DNA of 64,000 nucleotides. It comes from an uncultured candidatus Porisulfidus sp. GTDB lineage: Bacteria > Pseudomonadota > Gammaproteobacteria > Poriferisulfidales > Oxydemutatoraceae. Position numbers and translations under genes: made by a program. Shown in pieces: positions 54,282-56,096 of the stretch. The stretch lies in assembly GCA_965200865.1 (NCBI GenBank), contig CBDAVG010000002.1, forward strand, positions 1,097,838-1,161,837, written 5' to 3'. Every line of letters begins with the position of its first letter. Position 1 is the first letter of the stretch. The notes beneath the pieces were generated by a model. That model was not told the DNA's origin. It ran no database searches and saw nothing but the letters and a program-made list of their open reading frames with translations.

Positions 54282-56096
54282 GGGACTGTTGAAAAAGTAT
54301 TTGATATAAGCGAAAATAGATAACTGATTCAATCGGAGGTTTTTATGCAAGGCAATCATAATTTTCAGCCTGAACTATTTGTCCAAATAGACTATCAGGC
54401 ACTCATTCCCAGCTATCACATATTAAGGCGTATTGATAAAGTTTTAGACTTGAGCTTTGTCAAACAATTAACCCAAAGTTTCTATAGTGATACGCAAGGT
54501 AGACCGTCAATAGACCCGGAGGTATTTTTTCGTATGTGTATATTAGGACAACTCTATGGGATTAAGTCGGATCGTCAACTGTGCGACGAGGTTGGAATGA
54601 ACATTGGCTATCGTTGGTTTGTCGGATTAACTATGAGTGATGTGGTGCCGGATCACTCGTCATTAACTCGTATCCGCGACCGATTAGGTGTGGGATGTTT
54701 TGAGGCGATATTTGAGCGTGTCGTAGAACAATGCCGTGAGGCTGGATTAGTTGAAGGGAAACGGATCATAACAGATGCGAGTTTAGTTGAGGCGAATGCG
54801 TCGGCGAGGAAACTAGAGAGACGAGAGCAGCCGACTGCGGCAATAGCAGTCAAGGATGAGAGGCAACAAAGCCAGGAGGTAGTATCACAAACTGCATCAG
54901 TAAAAAAAGAAAAAGTCAGCAACCATGCCGATAAAGTAGATGATGATGCGAGTGCGGGCGAGACGAACCTACCGGCACAGAAATTGGAGAGGCGAGAAGA
55001 ACCAACACCAGCAGTAGAAGTTAAGGATGACAAGCAGCAGAGCAAGAGCGCAGTCTCGCCAACTGCGGTAGTAAAAAAAGAAAAAGTCAGCAACCATGCC
55101 GATAAAGTAGATGATGATGCGAGTGCGGGCGAGACAAACCTATCGGCACAGAAACTGGAGAGGCGAGAAGAACCAACACCAGCAGTAGAAGTTAAGGATG
55201 ACAAGCAGCAGAGCAAGAGCGCAGTCTCGCCAACTGCGGTAGTAAAAAGAGAAAAAGTCAGCAACCGCACGCATGTGAGTAAAGTAGACAGCGATGCGAC
55301 TCTAGTCAATCGTGCGGGGTATCCAAGAAAGTTATATCATAAGGTGCATTATTGTGCCGATGCAACCAGCCGAGTGATAACGGATTGCCATGTGACCACG
55401 GGTGCCTATCATGAGACTAATGTGATAACACAGAGGATTCAATATCAACAACAACGCTTTGGCTTGCCGGTTGAAGAAGTGATAGCAGATGTCGGCTATA
55501 GCAGTGGCAAGAATTATAAGTTCTTTGAAGAACACCAGATCCGCAGCTATATCCCGACTGCCAAGTTTCGTCTGACACCTGGTAAGCAAGTAGCCCATGA
55601 AGGCAGTTTCCAGTATGACCCCAATAAAGACATCTATACCTGTCAGGCGGGTCATGCGTTACACCCCAAACATGCAGTCGGTGCGACGAAGTATTATCAC
55701 ATCAAGAAAGCACATTGTAATAGCTGTCAATGGCAGAACAGTTGCTACTTGGGCAGGCGTCATACGGGTCTATACCGAAATGAGCATAAAGAGGCGATAG
55801 AACGAGTGAGACAACGACAAAGCAGTCCAGTATTTAAGCAAAGAATGATAGAAAGGAGTTGGAAGATAGAGGGTTTATTTGCTGAGGCAAAGGAGCGGCA
55901 TGGATTGAGGCGAGCAAAATATAGAGGTTCGGATAAAGTGCAGATCCAAGCCTACCTAACTGGGACCGCCCAGAACCTAAAGAGACTAGCGGTTTCTTTA
56001 GATTTTTATTTTCGTTGGATCAGATTTTGGTTTACACAAAGATTTTTATTATTGCGGTGTAGTTTCCAAGGATAGAACTACTTTTTCAACAGTCCC
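54282..56096 (+). mobile_element. IS1182-family-like insertion sequence (1815 bp) with 18-bp terminal inverted repeats GGGACTGTTGAAAAAGTA and a 4-bp ATGT target-site duplication. Its transposase CDS (54345..56075, 576 aa) contains an internal in-frame tandem repeat.
   Basis: Transposase N-terminal DUF772-like region and C-terminal ...YRGSDKVQIQAYLTGTAQNLKRLA; terminal inverted repeats at 54282-54299 and 56079-56096; ATGT at 54278-54281 and 56097-56100. Confidence 0.8.
54805..55320 (+). repeat. About 2.9 in-frame copies of a 177-bp (59-aa) repeat inside the transposase ORF (KLERREEPTPAVEVKDDKQQSKSAVSPTAVVKKEKVSNHADKVDDDASAGETNL...).
   Basis: Periodicity read from the sequence and the translated ORF. 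Confidence 0.85.

Follow-up and report, generated by a model that had tools for sequence, protein, structure and literature searches.

A variable-number in-frame tandem repeat in the transposase of an IS1182-family insertion sequence from candidatus Porisulfidus

Introduction

Insertion sequences (IS) of the IS1182 family are about 1.3-2 kb in length and carry one open reading frame (ORF). In-frame variable-number tandem repeats (VNTRs) are known in bacterial coding genes, in surface proteins and at contingency loci. Within the IS1182 family, IS1272 targets hairpin or inverted-repeat structures, and its insertion is reported to replace the target inverted repeat without duplication (PMC5678879). 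Here we describe an IS1182-family element in a 64,000-nt stretch (the window) of an uncultured candidatus Porisulfidus sp. (assembly GCA_965200865.1, contig CBDAVG010000002.1, positions 1,097,838 to 1,161,837). Its transposase contains three in-frame copies of a 57-amino-acid unit, and related elements carry one to four such units. We consider it probable that the element is an intact, recently mobile and hairpin-inserting member of its family, with a VNTR placed in a disordered loop after the strand that bears aspartate D144 and seeded by microhomology.

Tandem array in the transposase gene

The element, its gene and the array were located as follows (all coordinates are those of the window).

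54281-56097, forward strand: complete IS1182-family insertion sequence of 1817 bp, its ends given by the terminal inverted repeats
54345-56075, forward strand: transposase ORF, 576 amino acids plus stop, the single long ORF of the element
54792-54962, forward strand: repeat unit 1, residues 150-206, older and more diverged (37 differences from unit 2 in 171 nt)
54963-55133, forward strand: repeat unit 2, residues 207-263 (Tandem Repeats Finder and unit comparison)
55134-55304, forward strand: repeat unit 3, residues 264-320, ending in the conserved SNRTHVSKVDSDATLV motif (unit comparison and alignment)
54899-55266, forward strand: near-perfect part of the array, 2.15 periods, representing the latest 171-bp duplication (Tandem Repeats Finder and comparison at an offset of 171)

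Tandem Repeats Finder (TRF) gave a period of 171 nt (57 amino acids) with 2.2 copies and 97% matches at 54899-55266, and its score of 708 is far above chance expectation. Through a gap-free repeat finder, a third and more diverged copy was added, which made three in-frame units. Positions 54899-55095 and 55070-55266 differed by 4 mismatches in 197 nt (98% identity), while unit 1 was about 78% identical to unit 2. The first-pass annotation of this stretch had already recognized an in-frame tandem array inside the transposase ORF, and our repeat searches recovered it; the period given there, 177 bp (59 amino acids), has to be corrected to the TRF value, and the words "nearly perfect" suit the last 2.15 units and not unit 1. 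The unit had also been called acidic and lysine-rich; with 28 K+R against 30 D+E in 151 residues it is a near-neutral polyampholyte.

Unit number among related elements

Related proteins are designated here by P-numbers and related DNA loci by L-numbers, and their loops were split into units at the KLERRE anchor. The sample, drawn from a few sponge metagenomes, comprises about 20 copies, and the clade was found solely in sponge-associated assemblies of ENA/NCBI. Among 5.8 billion proteins, the closest homologues had lengths of 461, 515-519 and 567-578 amino acids. One unit was present in P0010 and in the remnant L005; two units in P0003, P0006, P0007, P0012 and P0013; three units in the window copy, P0001, P0002, P0004, P0005, P0008, P0009, L001 and L002; and four units in P0011 alone, a protein of 559 amino acids with a diverged and shortened C-terminus. 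The relatives with the same ends measured 1474 bp (one unit), 1634 bp (two), 1790-1829 bp (three) and 1972 bp (four). The unit length was 171 nt in the window, 168-177 nt in most relatives and 162-165 nt in a few.

The complete 2.88-Mb chromosome OZ241323.1, a metagenome-assembled genome named "candidatus Porisulfidus", contained five copies with 3, 3, 2, 2 and 1 units. Its one-unit copy (L005) was truncated, and a pattern-based scan of limited sensitivity found no intact one-unit copy in this chromosome. Leaving aside a 195-bp indel in the array, the three-unit L001 and the two-unit L003 had 98.35% identity. The array has the properties of a coding VNTR, its unit lengths being multiples of three and its unit number differing between near-identical copies; it lacks those of a phase-variable contingency locus, since with all unit lengths multiples of three the ORF stays open. 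With relatives carrying one to four units, five of them in one chromosome, the expansion is not a single recent accident.

The spacing between the invariant residues D144 and D315, which enclose most of the array, was 32-69 amino acids (median 54) in 101 more distant IS1182-family proteins of 41-50% identity. It was 113 amino acids in an aligned two-unit relative, 165-172 in three-unit proteins and 170 in the window. Thus, the multi-unit array is normal for a small IS clade but not for the IS1182 family; the concern that such repeats might be an ordinary feature of the family holds for the clade only. Plasmid-borne relatives reached at most 42% identity, with the alignment split around the array. 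In a scan of JGI metagenomes for relatives, 70 pattern matches were obtained and none was confirmed.

A profile of the three window units was also searched against 1.84 billion cluster representatives. It matched six proteins, all of them this transposase or fragments of it, and a module borrowed from another protein was therefore rejected as the source of the unit.

Position of the array in the protein

The residues and segments around the array were assigned as follows.

54762-54791, forward strand: strand 140-149 (RIITDASLVE), with the D144 codon at 54774-54776 and the 5' microhomology GATGCGAGTTTAGT at 54774-54787 (alignment and AlphaFold)
54840-55226, forward strand: predicted disordered loop, residues 166-294 (AlphaFold confidence)
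55287-55289, forward strand: D315 codon, in the conserved SNRTHVSKVDSDATLV motif of unit 3 (invariant in the alignment)
55488-55490, forward strand: D382, putative second catalytic Asp (IADVGYSSG), invariant and following strand 378-381
55869-55871, forward strand: E509, putative catalytic Glu in RSWKIEGLFAEAK, with the E-x6-K signature (invariant in the alignment)

We aligned 110 sequences, namely the window transposase, 8 close relatives and 101 more distant members. D144, D315, D382 and E509 were invariant in this alignment, as was R504, and W506 and K516 were conserved in at least 90% of the sequences. The AlphaFold2 model built with this alignment had a mean predicted local distance difference test score (pLDDT) of 79, with both flanks of the array above 90. 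The model contained a 10-residue strand at 140-149 including D144, then residues 166-275 and 277-294 with pLDDT below 50 and without secondary structure. Beyond the loop, the model has two strands (329-339 and 345-352), a helix (361-372) and a further strand (378-381), with D382 next. A sequence search of the transposase against PDB gave no match at E ≤ 1.

Through BLASTP of the one-unit protein P0010 against InsH of IS5 (E = 1e-8), ITDASLVVANAS (ITDASLVEANAS in the window) was aligned with LVDATIIEAPSS, placing D144 of P0010, which is numbered as in the window protein, on D143 of InsH (vDATiiEAPSS). The InsH sequence used was confirmed to be 100% identical to annotated IS5 transposases. Because of its invariance, the predicted strand and the IS5 alignment, D144 is likely the first catalytic Asp, on beta-1 of an RNase-H-like core, and D382 and E509 would complete the triad. 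The array starts 6 residues past D144, and therefore the loop would lie within the catalytic core and not be an interdomain linker. This differs from the earlier placement of the repeat between the DNA-binding and catalytic regions. The suggestion of a flexible linker agrees with the predicted disorder (pLDDT below 50 within 166-294) but not with the location.

Origin of the array

The 5' border of the loop is listed above; its counterpart is the following.

55293-55306, forward strand: 3' microhomology GATGCGACTCTAGT (DNA comparison of the borders)

Both loop borders carry a similar 14-nt sequence, GATGCGAGTTTAGT, which codes for D-A-S-L-V. In the one-unit locus L008 the borders read GAT GCG AGT TTA GT (with D144) and GAT GCA AGT TTA GT (in the DxDASLVNR motif); these agree at 13 of 14 nt, at a distance of 59 codons from each other. 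The internal junctions of the arrays were hybrids of the two borders, KVDGDAS being joined to (S/L)VEANAS. The left half, AAA GTA GAC GGT GAT GCG AGT (KVDGDAS), is like the 3' border, and the right half, GTT GAG GCG AAT GCG TCG (VEANAS), is like the 5' border. Such hybrid junctions are what slippage or unequal recombination would leave behind when it joins short in-frame direct repeats. The junction was nearly pristine (…VDGDASLVEANASA…) in P0007, P0012 and P0121 and decayed elsewhere, reading KVDDDASAGETNLP in the window, while ANASARKLERRE was always kept in the first unit and SNRTHVSKVDxDATLVNR always in the last.

In six arrays, those of the window (units 2 and 3), L002, L009, L010, L012 and L013, the closest relative of a unit was its own neighbour in the array, which would mean that further events recurred later. 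Units could also be matched between elements: unit 1 of the window with its nearest relative, unit 2 of L007 (93.6%), and unit 3 of the window with unit 3 of L007 (92.2%). This orthology points to a two-unit common ancestor, from which each element then gained a different third unit. The expansion had been called recent, and this is right for the duplication of units 2 and 3 (98%), which is private to the window copy, its nearest relative L007/P0001 having gained another unit.

From the borders and junctions we propose the following course. The ancestral loop would have been one unit of about 57-60 amino acids between two GATGCGAGTTTAGT-like borders of 14 nt, of which the 5' border belongs to the D144 strand and the 3' border to the conserved DxDA(T/S)LV motif. 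Slipped-strand mispairing or unequal recombination between these borders may have duplicated precisely the loop, in frame, for the first time. With two units of 171-177 bp present, further units could be gained or lost through unequal homologous recombination or slippage. The outermost copies of the motifs would stay under selection, and the internal hybrid junctions would decay under relaxed selection. Since the loop is predicted to be unstructured and both functional borders are retained, the extra units may have been tolerated, rather than beneficial, and the two- and three-unit elements could spread.

Element ends and family membership

The ends of the element are defined by the following features.

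54281-54302, forward strand: left inverted repeat TGGGACTGTTGAAAAAGTATTT (repeat search)
56076-56097, reverse strand: right inverted repeat (repeat search)
54279-54280 (left) and 56098-56099 (right): 2-bp target duplication TG (comparison of filled and empty hairpins)

The inverted repeats were identical at 22 of 23 nt, with the core TGGGACTGTTGAAAAAGTA. This 19-nt core was matched at 20 places in the window, where 0.03 matches would be expected. The element annotated earlier at 54282-56096 is real, with its ends actually at 54281 and 56097. TG is likely the target duplication, judging from the comparison of filled with empty hairpin sites. Through blastn and tblastn we found a single full IS copy in the window and no further ones, only miniature inverted-repeat transposable elements (MITEs) and solo inverted repeats.

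The transposase scored 379.2 bits with the NCBIfam IS1182 equivalog NF033551 (transpos_IS1182, cutoff 270), its residues 8-549 aligning onto positions 6-486 of the 488 in the profile. Pfam domains DUF772 and DDE_Tnp_1_6 were detected at residues 52-126 and 432-548. The family profile, the DUF772 plus DDE architecture, the conserved acidic residues and the single ORF bounded by inverted repeats all place the element in the IS1182 family, in line with the first description of an IS1182-like transposase of 576 amino acids. The typical family size of 450 to 480 amino acids given there also agrees with our comparison, in which family members typically have about 440-496.

Integrity, mobility and selection

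The window transposase has its own residue listed at every invariant or at least 90%-conserved column of the 110-sequence alignment. Over their 1634 bp, the two-unit elements L003 and L004 were 100% identical; they occupy two sites in the chromosome whose flanks are unrelated. The three-unit elements L010 and L011 had 3 mismatches over the 1790-bp IS (99.83%; 99.94% over a 1788-nt blastn alignment), and they lay on different contigs with unrelated flanks and in opposite orientation relative to the target. Near-identical two- and three-unit elements at different loci mean that the expanded forms were recently mobile, and the window copy, with its full ORF and intact ends, is probably capable of autonomous activity.

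We estimated the ratio of nonsynonymous to synonymous substitution rates (dN/dS) with the Nei-Gojobori method for four colinear copies of 576 amino acids (window, L002, L009 and L013). The N- and C-terminal parts gave 0.12-0.20 and the array gave 0.20-0.64; in the array, units that share a position are not orthologous in every case. The array appears less constrained than the core, yet not neutral.

The synonymous rates (dS) of the N- and C-terminal halves were discordant, 0.46 (N) and 0.19 (C) for window-L002 and 0.22 and 0.48 for window-L013, which suggests mosaic IS copies formed by recombination, with breakpoints possibly in or near the array. IS copies often lie next to one another. In L013, positions 1-3300, a two-unit copy (519 amino acids) lies head-to-tail directly upstream of the three-unit copy, and in L001, positions 1-1273, there is an inverted partial IS copy just upstream.

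Target hairpin, MITEs and surroundings

The target and the elements that share the IS ends in the window are listed below.

54270-54280: left arm and part of the loop of the target hairpin, GGGAGGGC-ATG (comparison of filled and empty sites)
56255-56265: right arm of the hairpin, TTA-GCCCTCCC (comparison of filled and empty sites)
56100-56252, forward strand: 153-bp MITE with IS-type inverted repeats, followed by TG and the right arm (56253-56265) (repeat search)
35618-35871, 42335-42586 and 50084-50336: MITEs of about 253 bp sharing the IS ends, 91-94% mutually identical (inverted repeats)
15561, 24843, 30648, 38252, 47355, 49866, 50406, 50691, 54036 and 59487: solo IS ends (inverted-repeat match)

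The IS and four MITEs sit in the loop of a hairpin resembling repetitive extragenic palindromes, GGGAGGGC-(CATGTTA / TAACATG)-GCCCTCCC, with the 2-bp CA/TG duplicated and in both orientations. These hairpins span 54267-54280 plus 56098-56265, 35598-35891, 42315-42606 and 50064-50356. In the first of them the IS and the 153-bp MITE are inserted in tandem, in the order …GGGAGGGCATG, IS, TG, MITE, TGTTAGCCCTCCC…. The empty hairpin, GGGAGGGCATGTTAGCCCTCCC, was found at 54070-54092 and within 24462-24834. The same hairpin was the target in L001-L005, L007 and L009, with the Porisulfidus copies in both orientations, and the flanks of L008 and L010-L012 were other than this hairpin. L010, L011 and L012, of a divergent subclade (P0008, P0011), had a repeated target in which the IS stands between …GGTGGTTGT-TCG and TCGTATCTGCA…, within repeat arrays of roughly 79-bp spacing in blastn matches.

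Window positions 48124-52008 were syntenic with L007 (ENA ERZ25067984, ctg15908), the closest contig, from a sponge metagenome, at 89-93% nucleotide identity. Between its purE and purK genes L007 carries a full three-unit IS, and the corresponding stretch of the window (49559-50709) is occupied by clustered MITEs and solo ends. The purE-purK locus is an insertion hotspot, and the window organism is related to the L007 symbiont.

Some further repeats were observed. Directly upstream of the IS, 245 bp (54036-54280) start with a perfect left inverted repeat, include an empty hairpin and MITE-like interior sequence and end at the half-hairpin filled by the IS; the stretch resembles a MITE that is partial or rearranged. 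Inside the MITEs there is another hairpin, GGGCGGAT(N6-8)ATCCGCCC, and a tandem array with a period of 125/250 bp (4.2 or 2.1 copies) at 21675-22196 is built around the same GGGCGGAT…ATCCGCCC hairpin. Positions 24462-24834 hold 4.4 tandem units of 84 bp (97% matches), each with an empty target hairpin, and an IS-type end lies at the edge (24843-24861). At 11150-11441 there is a 23-bp tandem repeat, ACCTTTTCTGTACCCTCCCTGCG, with 12.7 copies and 86% matches.

Alternative explanations

Several points weigh against the account of an intact, mobile element with a tolerated VNTR. The catalytic role of D144 is deduced from invariance, a predicted strand and the IS5 alignment, and the presumed activity and exact unit count of the window copy from the assembled sequence. 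Another transposase might also mobilise the expanded copies in trans, although the pattern-based scan of the Porisulfidus chromosome, which had limited sensitivity, found no intact one-unit copy. An array dN/dS below 1 speaks against pure neutrality, so that the loop sequence may matter, although the paralogous comparison compromises this estimate. The C-terminus of the four-unit P0011 diverges after CYLG, probably through a frameshift, and is without the E509 region; therefore P0011 does not demonstrate that four units are tolerated. Other damaged relatives are P0013 (internal deletion) and L005 (truncated). Together with P0011, and with the position of the insertion beside a catalytic residue, which it could disrupt, they might speak for a decaying or domesticated copy whose expansion marks a nonfunctional transposase, one of the options of the first-pass annotation. 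We regard this as very unlikely. The ORF is of full length with its own residue listed at the conserved columns, neither the inverted repeats nor the target duplication are damaged, expanded elements 99.8-100% identical occur at separate loci, and the core is under purifying selection; a domesticated gene would be expected to be single-copy and without inverted repeats. The unit count might instead have been expanded or collapsed by the assembler, as a near-perfect 171-bp period could confuse short-read assemblers. However, the same architecture with varying unit numbers appeared in independent assemblies, including the complete 2.88-Mb chromosome, and contigs had metaMDBG-style names (ctgN_Nx_l; ENA ERZ25067984 and ERZ26051807). 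Sponge metagenome projects reporting Porisulfidus use PacBio HiFi reads and metaMDBG (PMC12988363), and the present records probably have this origin. With four differences between units 2 and 3, and unit 1 diverged by 22%, the array should be resolvable in assembly, and an artefact seems to us highly improbable.

A functional role of the repeat has also to be considered. The unit number may be an adaptive rheostat, in which loop length tunes activity, for instance by way of autoinhibition, synaptic-complex geometry or action in cis versus trans; transposition rate would then vary heritably as units are frequently and reversibly gained or lost, contingency-like but never out of frame. At least six arrays with nearest neighbours inside the same array indicate repeated events or homogenisation, the array dN/dS of 0.20-0.64 is under 1, multi-unit forms are commonest among the intact copies, and the loop adjoins the putative active-site Asp. 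But the predominance of multi-unit forms can also be explained by descent and mutational bias, dN/dS below 1 is common in disordered regions and is here confounded by paralogous comparisons, and the sample is small. We consider such a rheostat unlikely on the whole, and the specific form of it, a reversible length dial by the active site that tunes transposition rate or cis/trans preference, slightly more doubtful again. Finally, the repeat could act at the DNA or antisense level, through repeated internal binding sites or a 218-amino-acid antisense ORF at 54653-55309. In the window, L003, L008 and L009 no stop interrupted this frame over the array, but L012 had 6 stops in it, L013 had 3 and four further copies had one each, and the ORF was rejected as not conserved. 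The sense frame has dN/dS below 1, and purine-rich sense codons would be expected to leave the antisense frame open, so that an action at this level is scarcely credible.

Significance and comparison with known systems

DDE cores are usually seen as compact, while in this clade the loop off the strand of the putative first catalytic Asp takes 57 to about 115 extra disordered residues in elements that are intact and have spread recently; about 170 extra residues were seen only in one damaged copy. The loop might thus be a permissive insertion site in IS1182/IS5-type transposases, of possible use in tagging or engineering. It offers a natural example in which microhomology between two conserved motifs may have seeded an in-frame coding VNTR, and the unit number could mark IS lineages in sponge-symbiont genomes. 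For annotators, the unusually long IS1182 transposases of this clade are to be taken as genuine. An effect of the unit number on activity, if there is one, would be a form of self-tuning new to insertion sequences, a heritable and selectable control of the IS for the element or its symbiont host; we know of no bacterial IS for which transposase regulation by a repeat-length dial has been described. In the full-text literature, the coverage of which is incomplete, no description of a VNTR in an IS1182 or other bacterial transposase was found.

The array resembles other bacterial coding VNTRs in its unit of a multiple of three, its variable copy number, its low-complexity disordered segment and the evidence of recombination or slippage. 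It differs from them in that the host gene is the transposase of a mobile element and there is no on/off frame switching.

As to IS5, the N-terminal region up to the first Asp motif is homologous to InsH, and the NCBIfam IS5_4 model matches residues 28-419. In InsH, however, about 17 residues separate the Asp from the RDPE motif, whereas the IS1182 loop is longer and is multiplied in this clade. IS1272 of Staphylococcus, an IS1182-family member with a transposase of 548 amino acids, is similar in that both elements target a potential stem-loop. Unlike IS1272, which is reported to replace the target inverted repeat and to make no duplication, the window IS keeps both hairpin arms and duplicates CA/TG, present on two sides of the filled site against one in empty sites; no tandem repeat is described for IS1272 in PMC5678879.

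With the IS1182 family as defined by ISfinder and NF033551, the element shares the passed family model, DUF772 and DDE_Tnp_1_6, a single ORF and terminal inverted repeats, and a variable loop lies between the motifs D-A-S-L-x-x-A-N-A-S and S-N-x-T-H-V-S-x-x-D-P-D-A-T-L-V in each of the 110 aligned members. It departs from other members in the length of this loop, 170 amino acids (113-172 in the aligned clade relatives) against 32-69 in the 101 more distant members, the extra length being a variable-number tandem array. Structurally, the element is a novel form within a known IS family and not a new kind of element.

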